Positions 12,431-61,813 are shown, counted from the first letter of the stretch. The stretch: DNA of 64,000 nt from an uncultured bacterium (GCA_964603785.1 CAZRWD010000003.1:142716-206715); one strand, 5' to 3'. Made by a program: numbers and translations. The notes: a model not told the origin generated them from the sequence alone.

Positions 12431-13624
12431 CTACTCGACGTGGAGCAGGAACCGCAGGAAGTCGGCCAGTCTCGAGGCCGGCTCCCATGCGGTGCCCACC
12501 GACGCGGCGGCTACGCCTACCACTATGAGGAACATTATCACGAGTTTCGCCGCGTCCTGCCCCTTCAGGCTGCCCAGGAGCTTCGGCTCGCGGGACAGGT
12601 ATGCGCTGGCCGCGAACAGCTCCTCGCCTATGAGCGTGTAGTCGCAGGCCGCGATGAAGAAGGGCAGCTGGCTGACCATCGCGGTGCCGGCTATCTGGAT
12701 CGCGCCCACGCTGCGGCCCGTCTCGGCCAGGATGAGGCTCTCGGCGTAGAAGGTGCCCAGGAGGAAGATCGCAGCGGGCCTCTGCCTCACCATCATCCCG
12801 TCGACTCCGGCGGCGTAGCCGAACTGGTCGTCGGTCAGGTAGTTGATGTTGTCGCGGCGGAAGGCGTCGGGCCGGCCGGCCTGCAGGTAGGCCTCCTTCA
12901 CGACCTCCTGGGCCACGCTCATCACGACGCTCCTGGTGTTGGGCACCAGGAGGCTGGCCCCGTACTCGGCGGTCTTCGAGGCGACCCTCCCCAGGATCAC
13001 CATGCTGGCGATGGTCTGTATGTCGTCCATGTCCATGATGCCGGGGATGTAGAGTACGGGGCGTCCCATCTCGGTGGCCCTGCCGACCGCCTCGTCGACC
13101 GCGGCCAGACCGCCGATCTCCCTGATGAAGAGGCTGCGGCCGCGCTTGCCCCTCTCGATGTACAGGATGATCACGCTGGACAGGAGGACGGTGATGACGA
13201 ACATCCCCACCCTCCTGCTGTGGAACCACTGGGCGCTCGGGACGGCGGACATCATGAGGCTGCGGCCGACGGGGACGCCTCCGCTCCATGCCTCGAGGAC
13301 GTATCCGTACTCGACGCCGTCCTCGAGCCCGTCGTCGCTCCACGACATCGATGCGCCGGAGACCCATCCGACCTCTTCGGCCACGCCTCCGCCGGACAAC
13401 CTGAGGATCCTCACGGAATCGGGCAGGGCACCATCGGTCGAATAGGTCCACGAGAGGTCCAGCATGCCTCCGACGTCGTCCGGGGCGTCTGAGGCCTCGA
13501 ACGAGTCTATCCTGGCCAGCGGCGCCGGCGGGGTGACCGCAGCCCCGGTCGAGTCGACCGGGGCGGCCGCCGCCGTGCCGGACAGGATGGCCAGGAGAGG
13601 CAACATCAGCTCGCATCTCTTCAT
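12431..13624 (-). CDS. Uncharacterised membrane protein with N-terminal FN3-like ectodomain
   Basis: Start trimmed to MKRCELMLPLLAILSGTAAAA (signal peptide). FN3-like segment (LDLSWTYSTDG...YGYVLEAWSG). TM helix (VGMFVITVLLSSVIILYI), a cytoplasmic domain of about 200 aa, and a C-terminal TM helix. Confidence 0.5.
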   Translation of the reverse strand: MKRCELMLPLLAILSGTAAAAPVDSTGAAVTPPAPLARIDSFEASDAPDDVGGMLDLSWTYSTDGALPDSVRILRLSGGGVAEEVGWVSGASMSWSDDGLEDGVEYGYVLEAWSGGVPVGRSLMMSAVPSAQWFHSRRVGMFVITVLLSSVIILYIERGKRGRSLFIREIGGLAAVDEAVGRATEMGRPVLYIPGIMDMDDIQTIASMVILGRVASKTAEYGASLLVPNTRSVVMSVAQEVVKEAYLQAGRPDAFRRDNINYLTDDQFGYAAGVDGMMVRQRPAAIFLLGTFYAESLILAETGRSVGAIQIAGTAMVSQLPFFIAACDYTLIGEELFAASAYLSREPKLLGSLKGQDAAKLVIMFLIVVGVAAASVGTAWEPASRLADFLRFLLHVE

Positions 13625-21895: not shown

Positions 21896-22492
21896 ATGCG
21901 GGCCAGGGGCGTCGATCGAAGGCGTCTTCGTGTTGCCCCGGAGGAGCATCCGTTTCCACCAGGGGATACGCGCAGCCTGGAGTCGGCGGCCAGGGCCTGG
22001 CTCCTGCGGCGGGGGGTGCCGTGCTGGACCTGCCCCGCCGGACCGGGCACCCGGGGGAGGTACGGACTCCTCCTGCACGGCGGCAGGAGGGTCCTCGTCG
22101 GACCCTGGCCCATCCCCGGATTCTCTCTCGAGGAGATGATCCAGGCCAGGTGCGACTTCCTCCTGGCGGTCTCCGGGGAGGGAGGGGATGCGCGTCCGGC
22201 GGGCTTCGTCACCCTCGCCGACATCGCGGGCACTTCACAGCCCTGGACGAGGCCGGACCTGTCGGCATCCGGCTCCAGGCCCCCCGAGGACCTCCCGGCG
22301 ATGGTCGGCAGACCCTCCAGGCCTGGACCTGCCTTCCTCGCGGGTTCGCTCCGGCTTCTGCTCCTCGGGGAGCCTCCGCCCCCGCCCCCCGGCGACTGGA
22401 GCGGCCTGGAGCCCCTCCAGCCGGTTCCCGCAGCCACTCAGAGCCCGGGGCAGGATGCGGCTATCTCTTCCGATATACCCTTGTCGCCGTAG
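21896..22492 (+). CDS. Hypothetical Pro/Arg-rich protein (doubtful)
   Basis: ATG preceded by a GGAGGGG ribosome-binding site. GC3-rich, but low-complexity and disordered-looking. It is the only candidate in a 600-bp gap and may be spurious. Confidence 0.2.
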   Translation: MRARGVDRRRLRVAPEEHPFPPGDTRSLESAARAWLLRRGVPCWTCPAGPGTRGRYGLLLHGGRRVLVGPWPIPGFSLEEMIQARCDFLLAVSGEGGDARPAGFVTLADIAGTSQPWTRPDLSASGSRPPEDLPAMVGRPSRPGPAFLAGSLRLLLLGEPPPPPPGDWSGLEPLQPVPAATQSPGQDAAISSDIPLSP

Positions 22493-24090
22493 GCCTTCTT
22501 GAAGTGCGCGGCGAATTCGGCCGCGAGCTTCCGAGCCCTCTCCTCGTATGCCCCCCTGTCGGCCCAGGTGTTGGCGGGTTTCAGAACCGTGCAGTCCTCG
22601 AGCCCCGGGCACGATGTCGGGACGAGGACCTTGAACCACGGGTCGACCTCGCACTCGATCCCTTCCAGAGCCCCTGACAGGGCTGCCGAGACCATCCTCC
22701 TGGTGAGCGTGATGTCCATCCGCCTGCCCGTTCCGAACGGGCCGCCGCTCCAGCCGGTGTTCACCAGGTAGACCGTGGTGCCGTGCGAATCGAGCTTCCT
22801 TCCCAGCATGGAGGCGTAGATGTCCGGGTTCAGCGGCATGAACGGCTCGCCGAAGAACCGGGAGAAGGTGCTCCTGGGCTCCACTATGCCCGTCTCGGTG
22901 CCTGCCAGCTTGCTCGTGTAGCCCATCAGGAACCAGAGCATCGCCTGCGACCTGGTGAGCTTCGCCAGCGGGGGCAGGACGCCGTTCGCGTCGGCCGTCA
23001 GGAACAGGATGGTGCGGGGGTGGCCCGAGACGGGGGGCTCCTTCACGTTGCTCAGGAAGCTCAGCGGGAAGGAGCCTCTCGAGTTGGGCGTGTAGCGCTC
23101 GTCATCGAGGTCGAAGCTCCCGTCCGGGTAGACCATGGCGTTCTCGATTATCGCTCCGTGCTCCGCGACGGGCGCATCGTGGAAGCAGGCCCTGTGGATC
23201 TCCGGCTCCTTGGCGGGGTTCAGGTTGACCAGCTTGGCGTAGCATCCGAACTCGTAGTTGCTTATCCCGTGGTCGTTCCAGCCGTGCTCGTCGTCGCCCA
23301 GCAGCGCCCTCTCCGGATCCGCCGAGAGGGTCGTCTTCCCCGTGCCCGAGAGGCCGAGGAGGAGCGCGCTGTCCCCTCCGGCGCCCTCGTTGGCGCTGCA
23401 GTGCAGGGAGAGAATCCCCTCGAGGGGCAGGAGATAGTTCATCACGGTGAAGATCAGCTTCTTCACGCTGCCGCAGTAGGCCGAGCCGTAGACGACCCCG
23501 ATCATCCTGTCGAAGTCCATCCCTATGAACATGTCGGTCGTGCGGCCGCGCGCCGGGTCGACCCTGAGGCGCCCCTCGTACCTGGCGGGGTCGAGCTTGG
23601 AGTACGGCAGCACCACCAGGGTGAAGGGTCGGGTCGCGAAGATGCTCCGCGAGAGGAGACCGGCTTCGAAGGGCCTGAACATGTTGTAGGTGAAGAGAGT
23701 GCTGAGGGCCTTGTCGGACACCGTCCTCACGTGGAGGGTGTAGGACGGGTCGGCCCCCACCAGGCGGTCGGAGACGTAGAGCGATGCGGACCTCCCCAGG
23801 GCCCCGAGCGCATCCTCCAGGACCATGTCGAAGGTCGACTCGTCGACCGGTATGCAGTTCGGGCTGGTCCAGTCGATGTTGCCCTCGCTCGAGGGCCTCC
23901 TGACCATGACGGTGTCCTTCGGGCTGCGGCCGGTCGACTCGGGAGGCGTCCAGATGGCGAGGGCACCGCAGGCCATGGGCATGGCCTCCCTGTTCCCGAC
24001 CGCTTCACCAATGAGCTCGGCGCGGGGGATGTCGACCCTCACGCCCGGTCTCTTCTCGAGTAGCCCGGCTAGCCTTTCCTGGAAGCTCAT
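22438..24090 (-). CDS. pckA: Phosphoenolpyruvate carboxykinase (ATP)
   Basis: Trimmed to a 550-aa ATP-PEPCK from ATG at 24090 (MSFQERL). Kinase-1a motif GLSGTGKTT and conserved regions (GDDEHGW, YTSKLAGTE). Confidence 0.9.
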   Translation of the reverse strand: MSFQERLAGLLEKRPGVRVDIPRAELIGEAVGNREAMPMACGALAIWTPPESTGRSPKDTVMVRRPSSEGNIDWTSPNCIPVDESTFDMVLEDALGALGRSASLYVSDRLVGADPSYTLHVRTVSDKALSTLFTYNMFRPFEAGLLSRSIFATRPFTLVVLPYSKLDPARYEGRLRVDPARGRTTDMFIGMDFDRMIGVVYGSAYCGSVKKLIFTVMNYLLPLEGILSLHCSANEGAGGDSALLLGLSGTGKTTLSADPERALLGDDEHGWNDHGISNYEFGCYAKLVNLNPAKEPEIHRACFHDAPVAEHGAIIENAMVYPDGSFDLDDERYTPNSRGSFPLSFLSNVKEPPVSGHPRTILFLTADANGVLPPLAKLTRSQAMLWFLMGYTSKLAGTETGIVEPRSTFSRFFGEPFMPLNPDIYASMLGRKLDSHGTTVYLVNTGWSGGPFGTGRRMDITLTRRMVSAALSGALEGIECEVDPWFKVLVPTSCPGLEDCTVLKPANTWADRGAYEERARKLAAEFAAHFKKAYGDKGISEEIAASCPGL

Positions 24091-24108
24091 CTCTCCTCCC
24101 GGTGGTCT

Positions 24109-24939
24109 TTGCATTGCGCAGTACAAGGCCTCTTTGCGGCGTCCGGGAAGAATAAGGCAAAGGATGGCCCCCTGCCAGTAGGGCGCCGCGTGGCGCGCCC
24201 CTGCGCCCGCGGCTATCTTCCCGCTCGGCGGGACCGGAGAGGAGGCCATCTGAAGCTCATCCTGCTCGACGTCGACATGACCCTCCTGTCCACCAGGGGG
24301 GCGGGGGTGGCCTCGCTGGAGGCCGCCATGCAGGACGTCTTCGGTAGGAGCGGGGCCTTCTCCGGCGTGGAGTTCGCGGGGAGGACCGACAGGCTCATCT
24401 GCGAGGACGGGCTCTCCCGGGCGGGCCTCGACGACGGGCCCGCCAACATGGCCCGGCTGCGCGGGGCCTACGTGAGGAGGCTCGCCATGGTGCTCTCGGG
24501 AGGGTGGCCGGCGATGCCCCTCCCCGGCGTGAGATCCCTGCTCGACGAACTCAGCGCGAGGAGCGACGCCCTTTTCGGCCTGCTGACCGGTAACTGGACG
24601 GAGGGGGCCTGGCTGAAGCTCGCAGCATGCGGGCTGGACGGCTACTTCACCTTCGGCGCCTTCGCGGAGTGCGGGAGGACCAGGACCGAGCTGGTGCCCG
24701 AAGCCCTGAGGAGGGCCGAGGCGCTGTCGGGGCGGCGTTTCCACCCGGGGGACACCTGGGTCGTCGGAGACACGCCCCATGACATCTCCTGCGCTCTCGA
24801 CTGGGGACTGAGGTCCATAGCCGTCGCGACCGGGCCGTACGACCAGCCCGCGCTGTCGAGGTCCGGAGCCGAGGCCGTCCTGCCGACCCTCGAGGAGACG
24901 TCCGCCATCATGGGCATGATCTTCGGGTGTCCGTCGTGA
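24109..24939 (+). CDS. HAD-superfamily hydrolase
   Basis: HAD motif I DxDxT (LILLDVDMTLL) and motif IV (VVGDTPHD). The track start is a TTG only 19 nt from the divergent pckA start. The true start is probably near 24250, just after a GGAGAGGAGG ribosome-binding site. Confidence 0.6.
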   Translation: MHCAVQGLFAASGKNKAKDGPLPVGRRVARPCARGYLPARRDRRGGHLKLILLDVDMTLLSTRGAGVASLEAAMQDVFGRSGAFSGVEFAGRTDRLICEDGLSRAGLDDGPANMARLRGAYVRRLAMVLSGGWPAMPLPGVRSLLDELSARSDALFGLLTGNWTEGAWLKLAACGLDGYFTFGAFAECGRTRTELVPEALRRAEALSGRRFHPGDTWVVGDTPHDISCALDWGLRSIAVATGPYDQPALSRSGAEAVLPTLEETSAIMGMIFGCPS

Positions 24940-26216
24940 GGAGGGGACTCTCCCCGGCGCTCGCATGGCAGCTCTACGACTGCGCGGACTCGGCTTTCGT
25001 CACGACCGTCGTGGCCGCCGTGCTCCCGGTGTACTTCGCCTCGGTCGTCTGCACGGCCGGGGAGGTCGCCTTCTCGATCGGCCCCCTTTCGGTGGGCGGA
25101 AGCCCGACCTCTCTCTGGGGCTATGCCGTCGCCCTGGCCGCAGCGGTCGTCGCGGCGGTCTCGCCCGCGGCGGGAGCCCTGGCGGACGCCACCGGGAGGA
25201 AGAAGCTGCTCCTCGCCTGCTTCGCGTCCCTGGGGGTCGCATCGGCGGCGATGCTCTCCTTCTCCGGACCGGGGATGGTGCTCTACACACTCGCCTTCCT
25301 CGTCCTGGGGGACATCGGCTTCGCGGGAGGACAGGTCTTCTACAACGCCCTTCTGATGTCAGTGGCCCCGCCCTCGAAGCGCGATTCGGTGTCGGCGGGC
25401 GGCTTCGCCGCCGGATATCTGGGCGGGGGCCTCCTGCTCCTGGTCAACGTGATGATGATCTCGAAGCCCGGCATGTTCGGCCTGGCGGACGCGGCGGCCG
25501 CCTCCAGGGCGTCCTTCGCCACGGTCGCGGCCTGGTGGGCGCTCCTCTCGGTCCCCCTGCTCGTCTTCGTCCGGGAGGATAGGACCTCCGCGAGCGGCTT
25601 CGCCGAGGGCATGCGCAGGGCCCGGGGGATGCTGAGGTCGACCATGCGCGACATCCTCCGCAGGAGGAACCTGCTCACCTTCCTCGTCGCCTTCCTCCTC
25701 TACAACGACGGCATCCAGACCGTCATCCTCATGGCCACCGTATACGGGAGGGCCGATCTCGGGCTCGAGACCGGCGACCTGATCCTGGCGCTCCTCGTCA
25801 CACAGGCGGTGGGAGTTCCCGGCAGCTGGCTGTACGGGAGGGCGGCGACGAGGATCGGGGCCAGGAGGGCTATACTGGTAGGGATCGGGGCATATATTCT
25901 GATAGTCCTGTGGGCATTCCGAATGAACTCCGCGGCGGAGTTCACCGCGCTGGCGGCGCTGGTCGGCCTGGTGCAGGGCGGTCTGCAGGCGGTCAGCCGC
26001 AGCTTCTTCTCGCGGCTGGTCCCCGCGGGCATGGGAGCCGAGTACTTCGGGTTCTTCTCGGTCTCGACGAGGTTCGCGAGCATCTTCGGGCCCCTCCTGT
26101 TCGCGCTGGTGAGGGACCTGACCGGAAGCGGCAGGTCCGCCATACTCGCCGTGATCGTCCTCTTCTTGCTGGGAGGGGGTCTGATGCTCAGGGTCAGGGA
26201 GCCGGAGGAGGCATGA
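24927..26216 (+). CDS. MFS transporter (UMF1-like)
   Basis: Twelve or more hydrophobic helices and an MFS loop motif (ADATGRKK). GTG start overlaps the HAD gene stop. Confidence 0.7.
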   Translation: MSVVRRGLSPALAWQLYDCADSAFVTTVVAAVLPVYFASVVCTAGEVAFSIGPLSVGGSPTSLWGYAVALAAAVVAAVSPAAGALADATGRKKLLLACFASLGVASAAMLSFSGPGMVLYTLAFLVLGDIGFAGGQVFYNALLMSVAPPSKRDSVSAGGFAAGYLGGGLLLLVNVMMISKPGMFGLADAAAASRASFATVAAWWALLSVPLLVFVREDRTSASGFAEGMRRARGMLRSTMRDILRRRNLLTFLVAFLLYNDGIQTVILMATVYGRADLGLETGDLILALLVTQAVGVPGSWLYGRAATRIGARRAILVGIGAYILIVLWAFRMNSAAEFTALAALVGLVQGGLQAVSRSFFSRLVPAGMGAEYFGFFSVSTRFASIFGPLLFALVRDLTGSGRSAILAVIVLFLLGGGLMLRVREPEEA

Positions 26217-27058
26217 ACCCGCTGACGGCCTCGGCCATCCTGTCCGTCGTCTCGGTGGCCGCCGAGGAGGTCTTCCTCCGCAGGAGCGGCTTCAGGCTGG
26301 CCGACCTCGAGATCTCGCCCGCGGGGCTGCCGCGGGGCGTGAGCGGCAGGCAGCGGGTCTTCCACCTCCGCTACCGGATCATCCGCATCGTCCAGTTCGC
26401 GGTCTTCGGCAGCATGTGGATACTCGCGGCCGCCAGGACCGACAGGGCCATGGTGGCATCCCCCCTCGGCCAGCTCACGACCGCCCTGCTGATGCTGCAG
26501 GTCGTCAGGGTGCTGGGGCGGAGGATACTCAGGAGCTGGGCCCTCCTGACCGTGACGGGGCTCCAGCAGGCCCTGCAGGCCGCACTCGTCCCCGTGCTCG
26601 CGGGGCTGCACCGCGGCCCGTTCCTCGTGGACCACATCCCGGGACAGGTCTACGGGATGTTCCTGACCACCGCGACCGCGGCGTCTGGCCTGGCCTTCTC
26701 GGCCTCCGTGACCTACCTCCTCAAGCTCCGGCCGGGCCGCACCCCGCGCATCCTCGGCGAGGAGCCGCCGCCCCTGGCGGCATCGGAGGGCATAGCGAGG
26801 AGGTCGGTGGCCACGGCCCTGCCCCTCCTCTCGGGCGCCCTCGCCTCGGGGGCCGTCATCGTACTCACGGGAGGCGGTGCGGGAGCCCTGAGGCTTCCCG
26901 CCGTCGCCCTCGCGGCGCTGGCTGCCGCCATCCTCTCGTTCCGCTCGTTCAGGAACAGGAATCTCCTTCACCATCCCGCCGGGATGACGGCGGCCCTCCT
27001 GCCGTACGTCCTGCTGCTCGCGGGGATCGTGTCCGGCCTTGCCTCCGTCCGTCCCTGA
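26213..27058 (+). CDS. Uncharacterised polytopic membrane protein
   Basis: ATG overlaps the MFS stop (ATGA at 26213-26216). About eight hydrophobic helices. No family recognised. Confidence 0.5.
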   Translation: MNPLTASAILSVVSVAAEEVFLRRSGFRLADLEISPAGLPRGVSGRQRVFHLRYRIIRIVQFAVFGSMWILAAARTDRAMVASPLGQLTTALLMLQVVRVLGRRILRSWALLTVTGLQQALQAALVPVLAGLHRGPFLVDHIPGQVYGMFLTTATAASGLAFSASVTYLLKLRPGRTPRILGEEPPPLAASEGIARRSVATALPLLSGALASGAVIVLTGGGAGALRLPAVALAALAAAILSFRSFRNRNLLHHPAGMTAALLPYVLLLAGIVSGLASVRP

Positions 27059-28838
27059 ACACCGGGGCGCACTGCTCGTCCAGCTTCCCCTGAACGGCAT
27101 CGCAGCGCTGGAGCCGACCGGCAACATCCCATATGCGGGAGGCCTCCTGGCCGCCGCGGCAGGGCTGGGTCCAGGGTCCGTCCTGGGCATGGAGGCCTGC
27201 GACACCCTGGGCGACCGGGCCCTCCTGTCCGAGATCGTCTCGAGGGGGCCCGGAACCGTCGGATTCACCCTCTACTGCTGGAATGTCGAGAGGAGCGTCC
27301 GCATGGCCCGGGCCCTGCGCGAAGCCCTTCCGGGCGTGAGGCTGGTCGCGGGGGGTCCGGAGGTCCAGCCGGACAACGGATGGCTGTCCGCGCAGGGCTG
27401 CTTCGACGTACTGGTCTCGGGCGAGGGCGAGCCCGTCTCGGGGATACTCACGGGCGGGCTTCCCGCAGCAGGCATGGTGATCTCCGGCAGCCACTCCTTC
27501 CCTCCCGGGGAGTACCCGGATCCCTGGCTGTCGGGCATCCTCGACCCGGCCGCGATGCCTTCCGTGATGGCTGAGACTGTCAGGGGGTGTGCCTCCGGCT
27601 GCATCTACTGCAGCTACAGGAGGAGCCACCCCGCGCAGCGGATCATGCCCGCCGCCCGTGCCGCCGCCCTGGCGCGCTCCCTCGCGGCGGCCGGGGCTTC
27701 GGAGATAGTCTTCATAGACCCCACGTTCAACGCGAGGGGCGACTTCGTGGAGCTCCTCCGCGGGCTCGACGGGATCGGGATCGAGTGCTTCGGCGAGATG
27801 CGCGGCGAGGGCGTCGGGCGGGATACGGCCCGGATGCTTGCTGCCGCGGGCTTCCGGTCGGTCGAGATCGGGCTCCAGACCTGGAACGGAGGAGCCCTGG
27901 AGTCCTGCGGGAGGCCATCGGACCCGGCCGCCGCGGCCATGGCGGCAGCCGTGCTGCGGGATGCCGGGATCGAGCCCGTCGTGGACATCATCATCGGCCT
28001 GCCGGGGGACACTCCCGAGGGGCCTCTGCGGGCCGCCCGGGAGCTCGTCCGGATGGGAGCGGGCGACCGCGTGCAGGTCTTCCATCTCGCGGCCCTGCCC
28101 GGAACGTCCCTGAGGGAGAGGACTGGCGAGTTCGGCCTGGAGTTCATGGACCGCCCGCCGTACTACGTCACGAGGACCCCGTGGGGGGGACCGGGCGAGA
28201 TAGCCGCCCTGCGGGAGGAGATAGCGGACATCCTGGGCTACGACCTGGACCTGGGGCACAGGCCCCTCCTCTTCGAGGGATGGGGGGGCACCGAGTCCTT
28301 CGATCTCGACCGTGGCGCCCCGCCGGGGGACGCACCGCCCTCGTACAGGCACGGGGCCCTGAGGCTTGCCTGCATGGAGCCCTGGGCGGCCAGGGAGGAG
28401 ATCCGCAGGCATGTCACGAGGCGGCTGCAGGCCGACCCCTTCTGCGTTCTCGATGTGATACTCGAGCCATCCCGTCCCTTTCCGCTCGACCTGCTGGACA
28501 TGATCCAGGCGATTCCGTCGGAGGAGGACTACTCGACCCGCACCGCCGGGGTGCACGGCCGTGCCGGGCGGACCAGACCCGCCATACATCTCGGGGATGT
28601 GCGGGAGTTCGATCCACGGTGGCTCACGGCCGCATCCGCCTGCTGTCCGGTGGTGGTGGACGCGGCCGACCCCTCGGAGCTGCCGGCGGAGCTCCTTGCC
28701 GCCGGAGTCGGCGTGAGGCTCCCGGGGACCGCCTGGGATCTCCCCTCACTCGAGTCCCGCGTGGCGGACCCCTCCCTCGTGCACTTCGAGTCGATGCTCA
28801 TGGAGAAGCTCTGGTGTCACGCCGTCCTCGACCTCTGA
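27039..28838 (+). CDS. B12-binding-domain radical SAM protein
   Basis: N-terminal Rossmann-like B12-binding region (ALLVQLPLN...PYAGGLLAAAAG). Radical SAM cysteine motif CASGCIYC. TTG start overlaps the upstream gene by 20 nt. Confidence 0.75.
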   Translation: MPPSVPEHRGALLVQLPLNGIAALEPTGNIPYAGGLLAAAAGLGPGSVLGMEACDTLGDRALLSEIVSRGPGTVGFTLYCWNVERSVRMARALREALPGVRLVAGGPEVQPDNGWLSAQGCFDVLVSGEGEPVSGILTGGLPAAGMVISGSHSFPPGEYPDPWLSGILDPAAMPSVMAETVRGCASGCIYCSYRRSHPAQRIMPAARAAALARSLAAAGASEIVFIDPTFNARGDFVELLRGLDGIGIECFGEMRGEGVGRDTARMLAAAGFRSVEIGLQTWNGGALESCGRPSDPAAAAMAAAVLRDAGIEPVVDIIIGLPGDTPEGPLRAARELVRMGAGDRVQVFHLAALPGTSLRERTGEFGLEFMDRPPYYVTRTPWGGPGEIAALREEIADILGYDLDLGHRPLLFEGWGGTESFDLDRGAPPGDAPPSYRHGALRLACMEPWAAREEIRRHVTRRLQADPFCVLDVILEPSRPFPLDLLDMIQAIPSEEDYSTRTAGVHGRAGRTRPAIHLGDVREFDPRWLTAASACCPVVVDAADPSELPAELLAAGVGVRLPGTAWDLPSLESRVADPSLVHFESMLMEKLWCHAVLDL

Positions 28839-28840
28839 AC

Positions 28841-29025
28841 GGGGTCAGGCTACTCAAGCCGTAAATACTCTGCAGACAACATGTTGAGAAAAGCAGGGTC
28901 AGGCTACTCAAGCCGTTGGCAGCGATACCAGTTTCGATCAAGAGTCACCTGCGCTTGAGTAGCCTGACCCTGCTTTTTCAACTGAAAAGTCTGACAATAG
29001 TTTACGGCTTGAGTAGCCTGACCCC
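28841..29025. repeat. MITE-like composite inverted repeat of about 185 bp (perfect 22-bp terminal inverted repeats, two internal copies of the same 20-mer)
   Basis: GGGGTCAGGCTACTCAAGCCGT at 28841 and its exact reverse complement ACGGCTTGAGTAGCCTGACCCC ending at 29025. Additional copies at 28896 (direct) and 28952 (inverted). The left and right arms are imperfect mirror images. Locally about 50% GC in a genome of about 68% GC. Intergenic. Confidence 0.6.
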
Positions 29026-29053
29026 GATTGCCCCCGATTGCATTGACCGATCG

Positions 29054-29067
29054 TTAGGCTTACCTAA
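29054..29067. promoter_or_regulatory. Putative DtxR/IdeR-type operator (palindrome TTAGGCTTACCTAA)
   Basis: Palindromic TTAGG-N4-CCTAA resembling the DtxR/IdeR iron box (TTAGGTTAGCCTAACCTAA consensus). Centred about 17 nt upstream of the dtxR-family gene start at 29078. Confidence 0.45.
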
Positions 29068-29077
29068 TGATACCGGC

Positions 29078-29794
29078 ATGGCAATCTCCAAGAGCCAGGA
29101 GGACTACCTGCGCACCATACACGACCTCGCCAGGGGCGAGGGGAGGGCCCGGGTGGCCGACATAGCCAGGGTCCGCGGCGTCAGCATGGCAAGTGTATGC
29201 GAGGCACTGCACAAGCTGGACAGGGAGGGCCTCGTGAGCTACTCCGCGGGAGAGTCCATCTCCCTCACGGAGGAGGGCGTCAGACAGGCCGTCAGGCTCT
29301 CCTCCGTCCACGACTTCCTGCTCCGCTTCCTCCGGGAGGTGCTGGGCGTGAACAGGGAGGACGCGGAGAAGGACGCCTGCTCGATGGAGCACTCCCTGAG
29401 CGCCGACACCATCTCCCACCTGGTCGCGCTGTCCCAGTTCGCCGACTCCAGGCTCCACGGAGGCGAGAGCCTCCTCGAGGCCTTCCGCAGGAGCGAGGCG
29501 GACGGAAGCGCCGCCGCTCCCCTCCACAGGGGCAGACACGGCGGATGGAGGAGGGACGTCCAGGGTCCGACCATAGCCGACATCCCCGAAGGCGGAAGTG
29601 CGAGGGTCGTGCATCTCCACGCCTCCTGCCCGATAAGGCGGAGGCTCGCCGACATGGGCATCCTGCCGGGCGTGGAGATCGAGCTCGTCCGCAGGGCGCC
29701 CCTCGGTGGCCCCATCGAGATCGCCCTCGACGGATTCTCCCTGACCCTCAGGAGAGGCGAGGCCTCGAGGGTGGAGGTCGAGCCCCTCCCGTGA
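29078..29794 (+). CDS. DtxR/IdeR/MntR-family metal-dependent transcriptional regulator with C-terminal SH3-like (FeoA) domain
   Basis: N-terminal wHTH (SQEDYLRTIHDL...RVADIARVRGVSMASVCEALHKLDREGLV). Metal-binding/dimerisation region. C-terminal FeoA/SH3-like domain (VHLHASCPIRRRLADMGILPGVEIELVRRAPLGGPIEIALDGFSLTLRRGEA). Confidence 0.8.
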   Translation: MAISKSQEDYLRTIHDLARGEGRARVADIARVRGVSMASVCEALHKLDREGLVSYSAGESISLTEEGVRQAVRLSSVHDFLLRFLREVLGVNREDAEKDACSMEHSLSADTISHLVALSQFADSRLHGGESLLEAFRRSEADGSAAAPLHRGRHGGWRRDVQGPTIADIPEGGSARVVHLHASCPIRRRLADMGILPGVEIELVRRAPLGGPIEIALDGFSLTLRRGEASRVEVEPLP

Positions 29795-29799
29795 AGAGG

Positions 29800-31812
29800 A
29801 TGAGCATCGCACTCGTTGGAAACCCGAACACGGGCAAGTCGACGATCTTCAACAGGCTGACCGGATCGTCCGCATGCGAGGGCAACTACCCCGGGGTGAC
29901 CGTCGAACTGGCCTGCGGGCACAGGATGCAGGGGGACTCCAGGCTCGAGTTCATGGACCTCCCGGGGCAGTACAGCCTGTTCCCCGCCTCCCGCGACGAG
30001 TCGGTCGCCGTCAGGTACCTCCTCTCCACCCCGCCGGACGTGATCCTCAACGTGGTCGACGCCGGCAATCTCGAGAGGAACCTTCAACTGACGGTGCAGC
30101 TCGCAAGCCTGGGCATCCCGATGGTCCTGGCGCTGAACATGTACGACGAGGCGGCGGCTTCGGGGAGGGTTCCCGATCCCTCCATCCTCTCGGCCAGGCT
30201 CGGCATGCCGGTCATCAGGACCGTCGGACGCACCGGGACCGGGATCGAGGAGCTGGCGGCGGCCATCGTCTCCGCCGCGGCCTCATCCCCGCCCAGGTAC
30301 CAGGGGCTCGGGCAGGACGTCGACAGGGAGGTCGACACCCTGAGCGGCATGCTTCCCGCAACCGCCGTCAGGAGTGTCGGGCTGGCCACTCTTCTGCTTG
30401 AGGGCAGCGAGGAGGCGGGTGCGGTCCTCTCGGAGACGAGCCCGGATCGATCCGATGCAGCGATGACTGCCGCGGCCTCCGCGATCCGCCGCCTCGAGAG
30501 GCTCTACGGCGACCCGGTCCAGATCGTCACGACCGGCCTCAGGCGGGGGGTCGCGGCAGGCCTCGTGATGGAGGCGGCCGGCCCGCCCCGCAGGAGGTCG
30601 ACGGGTCCCAGCCTCACCAGGAGGATAGACTCCCTCCTCCTGAACCGCTTCCTGGGCGTGCCAATCTTCGCGGCCCTCATGTACGGGGCCTTCTGGATGA
30701 CCTTCCGGGCCTCGGCTCCGTTCGAGGGTCTCCTGGAGGGCCTCTTCGGTGCGCTTTCGGGCCTGGCCGCCTCGGTCGTCCCCGGGGGGGCGTTCCGGTC
30801 GCTCCTCGCGGACGGCATCGTGGGCGGCGTGGGCGGGGTCCTCATGTTCGTACCTGCCATAACCATCCTCTTCCTGCTCATCTCGGTCATGGAGGACACC
30901 GGCTACATGGCCAGGGCGGCCTTCCTCACCGACGGGCTCATGCACAGGGTGGGCCTCCACGGCCGCAGCTTCATCCCCATGCTCCTGGGCTTCGGCTGCA
31001 CGGTGCCCGCGGTGCTGGCCACGAGGACCCTCGACGACCGCCGTGACAGGCTTGCCACCATCTTCGTCCTGCCCCTGCTTTCCTGCGGCGCGAAGCTGCC
31101 GATATACCTGCTGGTCATCGGGGCCTTCTTCCCCGAGAACAGGGCGGCCATGCTGGTGACGGTGTATTCGGTGGGAATCCTCCTCGCACTGCTGGGCGCG
31201 AGGGTGCTCAGGAGAACCGTCCTGCGCGGCGAGGACTCCCCGTTCGTCATGGAGCTCCCGCCCTACCGCCTCCCGACCCTCACGGCTCTCGCAGGACATG
31301 TCTGGAGGCGTCTCAGGCACTACATAGCCAAGGCGGGCACCGTCATACTCGCCTTCTCGATAATCCTGTGGTTCCTCGGCTACTACCCGCGCCCCGCAGA
31401 GGGTGCCGACCCGGCGGAGGCCCTAGAGGCCTCCTTCGCCGGGAGGCTAGGCCAGTTCCTCGAGCCCGTGTTCTCGCCCCTGGGCTTCGACTGGAGGATC
31501 AGCACGGCCATGGTGGGCGCCGCCGGGGCCAAGGAGCTCTTCGTTTCGCAGATGGGAATACTCACCGCCCTCGAGGGCGGAGGCGAGGTCGACCTCCCGG
31601 AGCGGATGAGGAGCCTCTACGACCCCCGGACCGGGCTGGCGATGATGCTCTTCGCCCTCATCTCGACGCCCTGTCTGGCGACGGTCGCCATGGTCAGGCG
31701 CGAGACCGGCGGATGGAGGTGGGTGATCGCCCAGTACGCGGCGCTGACGGCTCTGGCCTGGGTGGTCGCCTTCGCGGGTCGATGGATCTCTGGGATATTC
31801 CGCCTGTTCTGA
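29800..31812 (+). CDS. feoB: Ferrous iron transport protein B
   Basis: N-terminal G-domain (IALVGNPNTGKSTIFNRLTG, DLPG) followed by the polytopic FeoB membrane domain. A GTG three codons upstream overlaps the dtxR stop and is an alternative start. Confidence 0.9.
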   Translation: MSIALVGNPNTGKSTIFNRLTGSSACEGNYPGVTVELACGHRMQGDSRLEFMDLPGQYSLFPASRDESVAVRYLLSTPPDVILNVVDAGNLERNLQLTVQLASLGIPMVLALNMYDEAAASGRVPDPSILSARLGMPVIRTVGRTGTGIEELAAAIVSAAASSPPRYQGLGQDVDREVDTLSGMLPATAVRSVGLATLLLEGSEEAGAVLSETSPDRSDAAMTAAASAIRRLERLYGDPVQIVTTGLRRGVAAGLVMEAAGPPRRRSTGPSLTRRIDSLLLNRFLGVPIFAALMYGAFWMTFRASAPFEGLLEGLFGALSGLAASVVPGGAFRSLLADGIVGGVGGVLMFVPAITILFLLISVMEDTGYMARAAFLTDGLMHRVGLHGRSFIPMLLGFGCTVPAVLATRTLDDRRDRLATIFVLPLLSCGAKLPIYLLVIGAFFPENRAAMLVTVYSVGILLALLGARVLRRTVLRGEDSPFVMELPPYRLPTLTALAGHVWRRLRHYIAKAGTVILAFSIILWFLGYYPRPAEGADPAEALEASFAGRLGQFLEPVFSPLGFDWRISTAMVGAAGAKELFVSQMGILTALEGGGEVDLPERMRSLYDPRTGLAMMLFALISTPCLATVAMVRRETGGWRWVIAQYAALTALAWVVAFAGRWISGIFRLF

Positions 31813-55064: not shown

Positions 55065-55873
55065 CGCACGGTCAACTCCGCAATCCGGACGAAGCCCTCG
55101 GGGGGGATCCTCTCCGCCCTCTCGGTGCTATCTATACCCGCGTCCCGCAGCACGGCGCCAGCCCCCGGACGCCCGACCAGGTCGGAGAGGTTGTTCAGTA
55201 TCGTCTTCCTCCTCTTCGAGAAGCCGGCGGCGACAACCCTCCTGAACTGGGGCAGCAGCTCCGCGGGGACGAGCGGGGCATCCCTCCTGTCGAGAACGAG
55301 TACCCTCGAGCGGACGGCCGGTTCCGGATGGAAGTCCCCGGGCTCCGCTTCCAGGAGGGGTCTGGGCGTGAAGTGGGGCCAGAGCCCCAGGGTGAGGCGC
55401 CCGTATGCCTTCCCGCCGGGGGAGGCCGCTATCCGTTCCGCGACCTCGGCCTGGAGCATGACGACGGCCCTGCGCACCTGGGAGAATGCCGGCTCGACCA
55501 GCCGCATGACCGATGGTGAGGAGATGCTGTAGGGAAGGTTCGAGGCCACGCAGGTGAACGGGCTTCCGGGCAGCAGCCGGGGATCGGTCCTCAGGAAGTC
55601 TCCCCTCACCACGACCAGCCCCCTCGCGGAGAGCGTCCTCCCCAGATGCCCGGCGAGCCGCTCGGAGATCTCCACGGCGGTCACCGACTCGCAGGTCTCG
55701 AGCAGGCGGACCGTCAGCGCGCCCAGCCCGGGCCCGATCTCGAGGGTCGGGCCGCTGCATTCGCCCGCCATCCTAGCGGCGAGCCGGTCGTTGACGAGGA
55801 AGCTCTGCCCCAGCCTCCTGTCGGGAGTTACTCCCAGCTCCGAGAGAAGCCTGGAGACCTCGGACGCCCTCAC
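55061..55873 (-). CDS. rsmA: 16S rRNA (adenine1518/1519-N6)-dimethyltransferase
   Basis: GTG start overlapping the upstream stop (GTGA at 55870-55873). KsgA motifs (LGQSFLVN, LEIGPGLGALT, ASNLPYSISSP). Confidence 0.85.
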   Translation of the reverse strand: MRASEVSRLLSELGVTPDRRLGQSFLVNDRLAARMAGECSGPTLEIGPGLGALTVRLLETCESVTAVEISERLAGHLGRTLSARGLVVVRGDFLRTDPRLLPGSPFTCVASNLPYSISSPSVMRLVEPAFSQVRRAVVMLQAEVAERIAASPGGKAYGRLTLGLWPHFTPRPLLEAEPGDFHPEPAVRSRVLVLDRRDAPLVPAELLPQFRRVVAAGFSKRRKTILNNLSDLVGRPGAGAVLRDAGIDSTERAERIPPEGFVRIAELTVR

Positions 55874-57231
55874 CCGGAACCCCTCACGGACAGCGGGAGG
55901 CCCAGACCCGCGGCAAGCGAGGCAACCGCGGGGATGTCCACGCCCTCCCAGCGCACGGCCGTCAGGCGCACCTCCCTGTCCGAAGCCTTCGCGAGCGCGA
56001 CGAACGACAGCAGGTGACCCCACGCCCCGGGGCGGGAGGGTCTGCAGGTGTTCCCGTAGGAGACCTCGTCGTGCGCATTCAGGCTGATGCTGACGGAGTC
56101 GAAGAGGGAGAGGAGCCTCGAGGCCTCCCCGGTCGACATGATGCCGGTCGCGAGCCCGTTGGTGTTGAGCCGGAGCCTCCTCCAGCCCGCCTTCCTCGCG
56201 GCCCTCGCGGCGTCCTCGAGGAGGTCCGCCCTGTCGGTGGGCTCGCCGTAGCCGCAGAAGACCAGTTCCTCGAACCCGGACGGATCGAGTCGCGAGACCG
56301 AGCCCAGGACCCTCCGGGGGGAGGGGTCTCCCGACGCGTGCCTCAGGATGTACCCTCCGAGGCCCGGTGTGCGCTCGCGGATGCAGAACTCGCAGGAGTT
56401 CGAGCATCTGCCGGTCAGGTTCACGTATGCCCGTCGGCCCAGGACGTACACGACGGCCGGCCTGAGGCCCTCCTCGAGCATGAAGGCCCTGCGGGCGTTG
56501 CTCGACAGCCGCCGCGCGGCGGAGGAGGCGTCCTCCCCGGCGATCCGGGCGGCGCATCCGATCGTGTGCACGATGAGGGCCGGCTCGCAGGTGCGCCCCC
56601 TGACGGGCTCCGGGGCCATGTAGGGGCTGTCCGTCTCCGTCAGGACGCTTCCGCGGGGCAGGCCTGCCAGGATGTCCCGCAGGTCCCGCCTCCCGGCGAA
56701 GGTGAGCGCACCGGAGAAGCTCACGAACCACCCCCTGCGGACGGCCTCCCCGGCGGGTCCGGCGGGCCCCGTGTAGCAGTGCATTATCACGGGCGAGGGG
56801 TGGTCTTCGGGCAGGACCTCCATGATCCGCCGCTCCGCGCTCCTGCTGTGCAGGACCAGGGGAAGATCGAGGTCGCGCGCCAGGCCGGCGTGCATGAGGA
56901 GCAGATCGATCTGGGCGCCTTCGGGGGGGTGCGGCTCCTTCAGGTCGAGCCCGGACTCCCCGACCGCGCAGATCCCCGGCTCGAAGCAGAGCCTCTGGAT
57001 GTCCGCGAACCGCTCCGCACCCGTGCCGGCCTCGGACGGGTGGAGACCGGCGCAGGCCAGGACGGACTCCGAGGAGCGCGCGATCCGCAGCGCCTCCCGG
57101 GAGGTCGCCTCGTCGACTCCGGGGCAGATCATCAGGGTCACGCCCGCATTCCGGGCGTTCTCCAGGACTTCTCGAAGCCTTCCGGCCAGGCCCGGCATGT
57201 AGAGGTGGCAGTGGGTGTCCACGGCTTCCAT
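55870..57231 (-). CDS. Fusion protein: TatD-family metal-dependent hydrolase plus TatD-associated radical SAM domain
   Basis: Trimmed to MEAVDTHCHL (TatD motif). TatD region of about 250 aa (VGESGLD, VLHSRSA, TDSPYMAP). C-terminal region of about 200 aa with a radical-SAM cysteine cluster (CSNSCEFC) and a glycine-rich SAM motif (FCGYGEP). Confidence 0.75.
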   Translation of the reverse strand: MEAVDTHCHLYMPGLAGRLREVLENARNAGVTLMICPGVDEATSREALRIARSSESVLACAGLHPSEAGTGAERFADIQRLCFEPGICAVGESGLDLKEPHPPEGAQIDLLLMHAGLARDLDLPLVLHSRSAERRIMEVLPEDHPSPVIMHCYTGPAGPAGEAVRRGWFVSFSGALTFAGRRDLRDILAGLPRGSVLTETDSPYMAPEPVRGRTCEPALIVHTIGCAARIAGEDASSAARRLSSNARRAFMLEEGLRPAVVYVLGRRAYVNLTGRCSNSCEFCIRERTPGLGGYILRHASGDPSPRRVLGSVSRLDPSGFEELVFCGYGEPTDRADLLEDAARAARKAGWRRLRLNTNGLATGIMSTGEASRLLSLFDSVSISLNAHDEVSYGNTCRPSRPGAWGHLLSFVALAKASDREVRLTAVRWEGVDIPAVASLAAGLGLPLSVRGSG

Positions 57232-57251
57232 GCCAGGGGGGGGCGTCGCTG

Positions 57252-58511
57252 TCAGGCGGTCCGCCAGATCACGTCCTCCCTGGAGGGTCCGGTCGAGATC
57301 AGGCGCACGGGCGCCCCGCAGGCCGTCTCGACGAACTCGACGAACCTGCGGGCCTCTGCGGGGAGGGACTCCCAGGCCCTCTCCCCCCTGATGTCGCCGC
57401 TCCATCCGGGAAGGGTCTCGTAGACCGGCCTGACCCTGTCGAGGCCGATGACGCATGAGAGGGGGTCCGTACCCCCTGCGCCCTCCCAGGAGGTCGCGAC
57501 CCTGATCACCGGCAGCCCTCCGAGCACGTCGAGCAGGGTCAGGGCGATCCAGCTCACGCCGTTGAGGAGGACGGAGTACCTCATGAGGACGAGGTCCAGC
57601 CAGCCGCAGCGCCTGGGTCTGCCGGTCGTCGCCCCGTACTCGTTGCCCCTCGTCCTGAGGTGCTCCCCCGTGGCGTCGGCGAGCTCCGAGGGGAACGGGC
57701 CGGACCCCACCCTGGTGGAGTAGGCCTTCATTATCCCGACGACCTCGGTTGCGCGCGGAGCTATCCCGAGGCCCGTGAAGGCGGCGGAGGCCGTGCAGGA
57801 GCCGGAGGTGACGAAGGGATAGGTTCCGTGGTCGGGGTCCAGGAGCGTGCCCTGGGCGCCCTCGGCGATGACCGTTCCGTCGCGGCCCAGGACGTCGCGG
57901 ATGATCCCGGGGACGTCGCCGCAGAGACCGGACAGCCTCATGGACGCCTCGAGGAACCGCCCGGACTGCGACTCGAGGTCGGCGGCGGCATCTCCGTCGA
58001 GGCCCGGGACCTCGCGGATCACCGCTTCCGACAGCGCCTCGAGCCTCCCCGGGTCGAAGGTGTCCGCGAGCCTCATGCCGGTCCTGGCGAACTTCCGGGT
58101 GTAGGCGGGGCCTATGCCGCGGCCGGTCGTGCCGATCGCCGCAGCACCCCTTGCTCGCTCCTCGGCGGCCTCCAGCAGGCGGTAGGCCGGATGGACCAGA
58201 TGCACCCCGGGGGAGACGGAGAGCCTTCCCTCGAGGGGCACGCCCATACGCGAGAGCGCATCGATCTCATCCAGCATGGCTGCGGGGTCCGCGACGCACC
58301 CCGGACCCACGAGACCCTTCACGCCGTCGTGGAGGAGGCCTGTCGGCACCTGGTGGAGGACCACTGGGCGGCCCTGGAACCTGACCGTGTGTCCGGCGTT
58401 CGCGCCGCCGGAGAACCTGGCGACCGCGGAAGCCCCTCCGGCGAGGAGGTCCACGACCTTGCCCTTGCCTTCGTCGCCCCAGCCGAGCCCGACAACCGTC
58501 ACGAGGGGCAT
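57252..58511 (-). CDS. purA: Adenylosuccinate synthetase
   Basis: P-loop GWGDEGKGK and conserved PurA regions (GPAY, TTGRPRRCGW). Confidence 0.9.
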   Translation of the reverse strand: MPLVTVVGLGWGDEGKGKVVDLLAGGASAVARFSGGANAGHTVRFQGRPVVLHQVPTGLLHDGVKGLVGPGCVADPAAMLDEIDALSRMGVPLEGRLSVSPGVHLVHPAYRLLEAAEERARGAAAIGTTGRGIGPAYTRKFARTGMRLADTFDPGRLEALSEAVIREVPGLDGDAAADLESQSGRFLEASMRLSGLCGDVPGIIRDVLGRDGTVIAEGAQGTLLDPDHGTYPFVTSGSCTASAAFTGLGIAPRATEVVGIMKAYSTRVGSGPFPSELADATGEHLRTRGNEYGATTGRPRRCGWLDLVLMRYSVLLNGVSWIALTLLDVLGGLPVIRVATSWEGAGGTDPLSCVIGLDRVRPVYETLPGWSGDIRGERAWESLPAEARRFVEFVETACGAPVRLISTGPSREDVIWRTA

Positions 58512-61666: not shown

Positions 61667-61751
<85 letters not shown>

Positions 61752-61813
61752 CAGGCCTGCCCGAGGGTGGACAAGGCCTGATTATCGGTGACCGGGGGGC
61801 CCCGGTCAAAGAG

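Follow-up and report, generated by a model that had tools for sequence, protein, structure and literature searches.

Several families of small palindromic repeats have been described between bacterial genes. The Correia elements of Neisseria (CREE), which are the prototype bacterial MITEs, are non-coding intergenic sequences of about 100-190 bp with 26-nt terminal inverted repeats; a genome contains about 100-250 of them, a TA (or CA) target is duplicated on insertion, an IHF site can be present, and new promoters arise at their ends. When they are transcribed they form long hairpins that are substrates of RNase III, and the processing of these hairpins alters the expression of neighbouring genes (PMC2649163; PMC10969869). 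The criteria by which MITEs are recognised include terminal inverted repeats of about 4-30 bp, and their target-site duplications are known to decay in old elements (PMC10969869). The pneumococcal BOX, RUP and SPRITE repeats and the ERIC sequences are likewise small, palindromic, intergenic and multi-copy, and they are able to nest by insertion and to modulate the stability of mRNA (PMC10969869). REPINs have a different construction, an inverted doublet in which conserved units are joined by a less conserved spacer that still pairs, and they are extragenic, lie near the ends of genes and have no target-site duplication (PMC3116915). The REP units of which they consist are each palindromic, reach high copy numbers (tens to hundreds per genome) and are associated with the gene for a RAYT (Y1 transposase), and the REPIN clusters that have been described are tandem arrays.

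Here we describe a non-coding nested palindrome of 187 bp, imperfect overall, at positions 28840-29026 of a 64-kb window (the whole stretch of DNA that was analysed, 64,000 nucleotides) from an uncultured bacterium. The element shares with CREE its size range, its intergenic and non-coding character, the length of its terminal inverted repeats and the long hairpin predicted for its transcript. It differs from them in having a single known copy and no target-site duplication; neither an IHF site (by eye) nor a promoter at its ends (by promoter scan) was found, and the terminal repeat is reiterated internally on each arm. Its likeness to REPINs lies in the conserved units and the less conserved, pairing spacer, in its extragenic position near a gene end, and again in the lack of a target-site duplication. 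In contrast to REPs, however, its motif is confined to one locus in 64 kb, no RAYT gene is present among the window ORFs scanned against Pfam, the repeated unit is not itself palindromic beyond 4 bp, and its ++-- arrangement corresponds to a REPIN inside a REPIN rather than to a tandem array. With BOX, RUP, SPRITE and ERIC it has a general likeness as a small palindromic intergenic repeat, but no sequence in common. The element therefore looks like the Correia/ERIC-type MITEs and like REPINs, and because it has no target duplication, a single known copy and no partner enzyme among the ORFs scanned, we file it as a member of neither. Our main reading, to which we give a probability of about one half, is of an orphan foldback insertion of the MITE/REPIN type, non-coding and specific to its lineage.

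Results

The element is composed of four copies of a repeated unit, R, and two spacers around a central loop of 39 nt, in the order R1-S1-R2-loop-R3'-S1'-R4' (R-S-R-loop-R'-S'-R'), with arms that read ++--. The core of R, GGGTCAGGCTACTCAAGC(CGT), is present in four copies, two per strand, and GGGTCAGGCTACTCAAGC is contained in both of the inverted repeats from which the palindrome is built. The outer inverted repeat, identified with a repeat finder, joins positions 28840-28865 to 29001-29026 over 26 nt with 100% complementarity; its left arm (plus strand), CGGGGTCAGGCTACTCAAGCCGTAAA, holds R1 (28842-28862), and its right arm (minus strand) holds R4 (29004-29024, minus strand). Nested inside it is a perfect inner inverted repeat of 25 nt, with a left arm at 28889-28913 (plus strand), AAAAGCAGGGTCAGGCTACTCAAGC, that holds R2 (28896-28916), and a right arm at 28953-28977 (minus strand) that holds R3 (18 nt, 28953-28970, minus strand). 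Between the outer and inner arms lie the left spacer S1 (28866-28888, plus strand), which contains a 10-bp palindrome, CAACATGTTG, and the right spacer S1' (28978-29000, minus strand), which is its diverged mirror. The loop, at 28914-28952, is non-palindromic.

Statistically the structure is overwhelming. The 19-mer GGGTCAGGCTACTCAAGCC is found four times, at 28842 (+), 28896 (+), 28952 (-, with one mismatch) and 29006 (-), against an expectation of 0.01 in shuffled sequences, and four copies were reached in 0 of 100 shuffles. The direct copies of R are 54 nt apart, start to start, in each arm, and the overall spacing of the four copies is 54/57/54 nt. The two 74-nt arms are identical at 67 of 74 positions, all of the differences being located within the 23-nt spacers: from arm to arm, the R blocks agree at 51/51 positions and the spacer at 16 of 26 aligned columns (Fisher p = 5e-6). 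The boundaries of R identity are sharp, and the sequences that flank R1 and R2 are unrelated to each other. R has an internal palindrome of just 4 bp and contains the tetranucleotide GTAG, which is a feature of the REP/RAYT system. The longest incidental reading frames in the element have 39-54 codons.

The RNA of the element folds with an energy of -120.8 kcal/mol, compared to -56.0 +/- 4.5 for shuffled sequences (z = -14.6), and comparable results were obtained for the DNA (z = -15.4) and for the RNA of the minus strand (-124.6 kcal/mol). Searches against Rfam 15, at gathering and at permissive thresholds, gave as their best matches generic miRNA-precursor hairpins, at 33 bits against a threshold of 90. 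The GC content of the element is 0.49-0.51 (0.51 over the full 187 bp), compared to 0.677 for the window (median 0.68) and 0.59-0.76 for the other gaps between ORFs, and no other 187-nt stretch of the 64-kb window has a lower GC content. These results bear out every descriptive point of a preliminary description of the same DNA, which had reported an element of about 185 bp between the radical SAM gene and dtxR-feoB, two additional copies of a 20-mer, one direct and one inverted, halves that are imperfect mirror images, a potential to fold into a long hairpin, for which RNA folding was the proposed check, and a local GC content of about 50% against about 68%. The perfect terminal inverted repeats of 22 bp that it also reported were understated, as they extend over 26 nt.

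The flanking genes were typed with Pfam. Upstream is a gene for a B12-binding radical SAM protein (PF02310, PF04055; 27039-28838, plus strand), and the element begins two bases past its TGA stop codon. Downstream is a gene for a DtxR/IdeR-type repressor (29078-29794, plus strand) with three domains, an N-terminal DNA-binding domain, a metal-binding/dimerisation domain and a C-terminal FeoA/SH3-like domain, which is followed by the gene for FeoB (29791-31812, plus strand). A promoter scan of 28500-29400 found one sigma-70-like site in the region, the dtxR-feoB promoter TTGACC-17 nt-AATGAT at 29043-29071 (plus strand), and the right end of the element lies 17 bases upstream of its -35. DtxR/IdeR operators were modelled on the palindrome TTAGRC-NN-RCCTAA that is conserved upstream of orthologous dtxR genes, using a weight matrix of six distinct orthologous boxes. 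The top site in the window, at 26.9 bits, is the box TTAGGCTTACCTAA at 29054-29067 (plus strand), which overlaps the promoter, and the -35, the DtxR box and the -10 are kept in all of the relatives examined. The dtxR-feoB promoter and operator thus lie beyond the element and are left intact. We take this adjacent box to be a genuine conserved operator overlapping the promoter, and the dtxR-feoB promoter is predicted to be autoregulated.

In two public gene calls, P0001 and P0034 (window 28916-29794), one of the incidental frames in the right arm of the element adds 41-54 codons to dtxR, and the proteins have 279 and 292 aa. We place the conserved start of dtxR at the ATG at 29078 (238 aa) because the promoters of the relatives align there, and the extra codons are spurious. 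For annotation, such spurious extensions of dtxR by gene callers are the main consequence of the element. The nearest named homologues of the repressor are those of Candidatus Fermentibacter daniensis and of 'Hyd24-12' MAGs (67% identity), and the host is classified here as an uncultured member of the Fermentibacterota, a Fermentibacter-like species.

The gene order MFS - hypothetical - radical SAM - dtxR - feoB is kept in seven other lineages. The lineages compared were L004 (a 2.5-Mb contig), L015 together with related F. daniensis loci, L028, L032, L041, L042 and L043, of which L042 was obtained together with L041 and was not read separately. In these relatives the spacer between the radical SAM gene and dtxR measures 45-93 bp and holds just the -35, the DtxR box and the -10; the element is absent, and the 16-mer core of R was found in none of the syntenic loci. 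Since the syntenic relatives have only this short spacer, the element is a lineage-specific insertion. Its reading as an AT-rich, non-coding element bounded by inverted repeats is supported, and it is an insertion with respect to every syntenic relative examined. The radical SAM protein ends in ..VLDL* in the window, as it does in L041 (..VLDL*), and in ..ILQL* in L028, a codon-for-codon match which indicates that the stop codon is ancestral and, therefore, that the element was added directly 3' of an intact gene. After the L028 stop codon, the sequence CCCCGAT matches the junction at the right end of the element.

Two types of C-terminus were seen among the radical SAM proteins, ..HLGSE* (L004, L015, L032 and L043) and ..L(D/Q)L* (the window, L028 and L041). 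Pairwise identities conflict on the tree, the window being nearer to L004 by radical SAM and nearer to L028 by FeoB. The longer order HAD hydrolase - Atg22-like MFS - hypothetical protein of about 280 aa (no Pfam hit) - B12 radical SAM - dtxR - feoB is conserved in the window (24109-31812, plus strand) and in L004, L015, L023 and L028, and this conserved order suggests a functional link of the radical SAM cluster with iron uptake.

Assemblies of at least eight runs, which fall under three accession prefixes (ERR45xxxxx, SRR301048xx and ERR149647xx), gave the element with the same sequence, and in the Logan assemblies a 301-nt stretch that includes it is identical in ERR4519281, ERR4519283, ERR4510095, SRR30104880-82 and ERR14964774. 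This agreement across the three prefixes shows that the element is no artefact of assembly, and the repeats, being shorter than the k-mer scale of assembly, argue the same way. All assemblies of the species that were recovered carry the element, and no empty-site allele was seen among them. One strain variant, L003 (SRR30104879), has three SNPs in the element and none in the R core; one of the three turns an A-U pair of the stem into G-U, and one falls in the loop. Of the 15 differences that distinguish L003 over 1.6 kb, nine cluster in 29031-29061, compared to a divergence of about 0.2% in coding DNA. This cluster spans the -35 flank, the centre of the DtxR box and the stretch of a perfect tandem 10-mer, CCCCGATTGC x2 (29022-29041, plus strand), whose first copy overlaps the right end of the element. 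The interval 29022-29061 is thus a local hotspot of mutation or recombination that adjoins the palindrome.

Further copies of the element were sought in the 64 kb of the source genome and in public collections that do not include that genome. The window contains no further 19-mer at up to three mismatches and no further 13-mer at up to two, and the 9-mer core is present outside the element at chance level (3 observed, 1.7 expected). The absence of further R copies from 64 kb argues against more than about 100 copies per genome, and is compatible with fewer. The exact 18-mer was found in two singletons in GTDB representatives, ten in JGI metagenomes and two in IMG/VR, which belong to unrelated organisms and phyla and whose flanks share nothing with the element or with each other. 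The BLAST extensions of 20-25 nt at these singletons, suspicious at first, were attributed to chance, as the four repeat variants offer four different flanks. In the GTDB representatives, the exact 18-mer was absent from the ends of IS elements. A blastn search of the element against plasmids and phages gave nothing meaningful, its six-frame peptides matched, among 5.8 billion protein clusters, just the over-extended dtxR call of the locus itself, and phmmer, run with the open frame in the right arm on 1.84 billion representatives, returned just P0050, an unrelated tandem-repeat translation. The 46 ORFs compared with Pfam, which cover most of the window, contain no transposase, RAYT or recombinase domain.

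No target-site duplication was found at the ends of the element, where the flanks read TGAAC and GATTG, and the R cores are bordered just by the self-complementary dinucleotide CG, which is uninformative. The terminus GGGGTC was suggestive of the Tn3 family, whose ends have the form GGGG...TAAG over 38 bp and which makes a 5-bp duplication, but we rejected this assignment on finding no TAAG at positions 35-38 and no 5-bp duplication. The claim that the element is a MITE stands in part. It agrees with the perfect 26-nt terminal repeats, with the size (187 bp, the usual limit being about 500 bp), the non-coding character, the AT-richness and the stable fold, and with presence or absence between lineages, which was not seen within the species; a target-site duplication and a second copy were not found. 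A mobile origin is weakened by the searches of the 64 kb and of the public collections, and is still compatible with them.

Discussion

We infer that the element has a mobile origin. In this scenario, an ancestor of this Fermentibacter-related species would have acquired it in the short spacer that separates the radical SAM gene from dtxR-feoB and bears the promoter, and one small element may be nested centrally in another whose ends are the same. The ++-- reiteration appears unusual for bacterial MITEs, and nested insertion, as reported for the pneumococcal repeats, could be one reading of it. We favour an insertion of the MITE/REPIN type because of the sharp boundaries of R, the unrelated flanks of R1 and R2, the anomalous composition, and a spacer that has drifted while still pairing, as in REPINs. 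Conserved ends with a less conserved spacer are the pattern described for REPINs (PMC3116915) and for the ends of MITEs (PMC10969869), and the identity of the R blocks, set against the divergence of the spacer, is not what a plain segmental duplication would give. Another possible history, which we regard as rather unlikely, is that the palindrome grew in place and was never mobile, with inverted and direct copies arising locally when replication switched template at a short palindrome already present, and with the arms kept perfect by quasipalindrome correction. Growth in place would agree with the single copy in everything searched and with the lack of a target-site duplication, and the 10-bp tandem duplication at the right end, together with the hypervariable 30 nt that adjoin it, suggests slippage-prone DNA. 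It would also agree with a sequence in L004, which has no element: at the stop codon of its radical SAM gene (L004:5941-5968) it reads GGGGTCGGAATAGCCTGACGCCGATTG, which resembles both termini of the element and is collinear with the right end at 16/17 positions. An unrelated k-mer matches the element as well as L004 does in 1-3% of cases, a figure for which collinearity was not yet required. However, the left half of GGGGTCGGAATAGCCTGACGCCGATTG is the conserved coding end G-S-E-stop, and the CCTGAC motif is missing in L015, L032, L043, L028 and L041 and is thus not ancestral. Since the motif is not shared by other members of either clade, the resemblance is probably a coincidence, though a statistically unusual one. 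Growth in place is further opposed by the sharp boundaries and unrelated flanks of R1 and R2, which are unlike those of a segmental duplication, by a composition that is atypical even among the gaps between ORFs of this genome, and by the relatives, which have no significant hairpin there that could have served as a seed. Expansion of an ancestral small hairpin was rejected in the same way, as the 3' ends of the relatives' radical SAM genes show no significant hairpin. An insertion of the MITE/REPIN type is therefore preferred over growth in place, without certainty.

The element might alternatively be explained by a function at the locus, and four such explanations were weighed. The preliminary description had suggested an array of degenerate metalloregulator sites, and the R copies would then act as auxiliary or decoy operators for the adjacent DtxR-type repressor. 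The element does adjoin a real DtxR box, and half of R (GTCAGGCT) is one position away from the left half-site of that box (GTTAGGCT). The mismatch nevertheless hits a T that is invariant in six of six boxes, R lacks a second half-site, and the weight matrix gives it -8.2 bits, compared to 26.9 for the true box, so that R ranks about 239th in the window and some 240 random window positions are as good. By this matrix the repeats of the element are not DtxR operators, and we consider a decoy role scarcely credible. Binding by some other trans-acting protein (a regulator, a domesticated transposase or a nucleoid protein) that assembles a nucleoprotein complex on the four 21-mers upstream of the iron-regulated promoter is improbable. 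The four R sites are perfectly conserved between diverged spacers, their spacing of 54/57/54 nt is close to five helical turns and would place them roughly on one face of the helix, and the three SNPs of L003 all avoid the R cores, which is not significant (p ~0.23). Against this, the motif is found nowhere else in 64 kb, with its 9-mer core at chance level outside the element, the relatives have no such site and hence no conserved regulon, R is not palindromic, unlike most operators, and the ORFs scanned nearby include no candidate binding protein. A role as intrinsic (Rho-independent) terminator for the radical SAM operon is very doubtful, even though a very stable hairpin starts 2 nt past the stop codon and no terminator is predicted at that position in the relatives. 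A T-run is missing after the hairpin on both strands (the 3' tail is GAUUGCCCCCGAUUG), and the earlier terminator proposal lacks the U-tract that it needs; a scan of 28500-29400 gave no terminator-like site, and a stem-loop of 187 nt far exceeds the size of a canonical terminator. Perfect inverted repeats of 25-26 nt that flank short segments beside a promoter could also point to a phase-variable DNA switch that a recombinase inverts by acting at the R copies. This is a most improbable reading, given that the orientation is the same in every assembly, that inversion of a near-palindromic segment would change little, that the sole promoter-like site lies outside the element and none is internal, and that the 46 Pfam-scanned ORFs have no recombinase domain.

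The element might be the founder, or the one member so far visible, of a foldback family of the Fermentibacterota that has not been described. The paired, identical 21-nt sites of each arm would then be bound by a trans-acting protein, and this protein would mobilise the element with no duplication of the target or would have been recruited to shield the iron-regulated dtxR-feoB promoter from upstream read-through. We regard this as a long shot. The ends of Tn7 and Mu, with their multiple transposase-binding sites, would be comparable to the two putative 21-nt sites per arm. If it is mobile, no repeat element would have been described before it from the Fermentibacterota, an uncultured phylum, and it would exemplify MITE-like elements whose end-repeats are reiterated and whose target is not duplicated.

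As the element encodes nothing, a long hairpin in read-through RNA would be its only predictable activity. Read-through from the upstream operon is plausible in this family because the relatives have no predicted terminator before dtxR, and a transcript that continues from the radical SAM gene would carry a hairpin of about -120 kcal/mol that has two perfect 25-26-bp duplexes and lacks a U-tract. Structures of this kind in Correia-containing mRNAs are bound and cut by RNase III (PMC2649163; PMC10969869). The analogy of the Correia and ERIC elements makes a processing site of the RNase III type, a 3'-end stabiliser or an insulator of the two transcription units from each other a likelier role for the hairpin than that of an intrinsic terminator. 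From this analogy we infer that processing, stabilisation or insulation would be the most likely activity of the element, if it has any; the element may equally be selectively neutral, which is just as compatible with the data. If the hairpin is processed in RNA, it would represent a selfish hairpin that uncouples a housekeeping operon from an adjacent metal-regulated operon. As far as the evidence now goes, the insertion is single and apparently inert, does not alter the DtxR-controlled promoter, and is of small practical importance.

Additional observations in the window

The other ORFs of the window that were scanned with Pfam have housekeeping functions, and include a TonB-dependent receptor, ExbBD, the glycine cleavage system, PEPCK, pyruvate:ferredoxin oxidoreductase, ClpX and trigger factor. 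The PEPCK ORF (22438-24966, minus strand) has an N-terminal extension of 310 aa without a Pfam match, and its listed start is probably too far upstream. An ORF at 55870-57456 (minus strand) combines TatD-type DNase and radical SAM domains, and is either a fusion or two adjacent genes. A further palindrome is present at 13507-13599, within or at the end of the DUF6754 gene region; it is imperfect, with 46-nt arms that are 74% complementary around a 1-nt centre, GC-rich, and unrelated to the element. The sole structured RNA in the window that passes the Rfam threshold is a tRNA-Leu (anticodon TAG) at 61668-61752 (minus strand).
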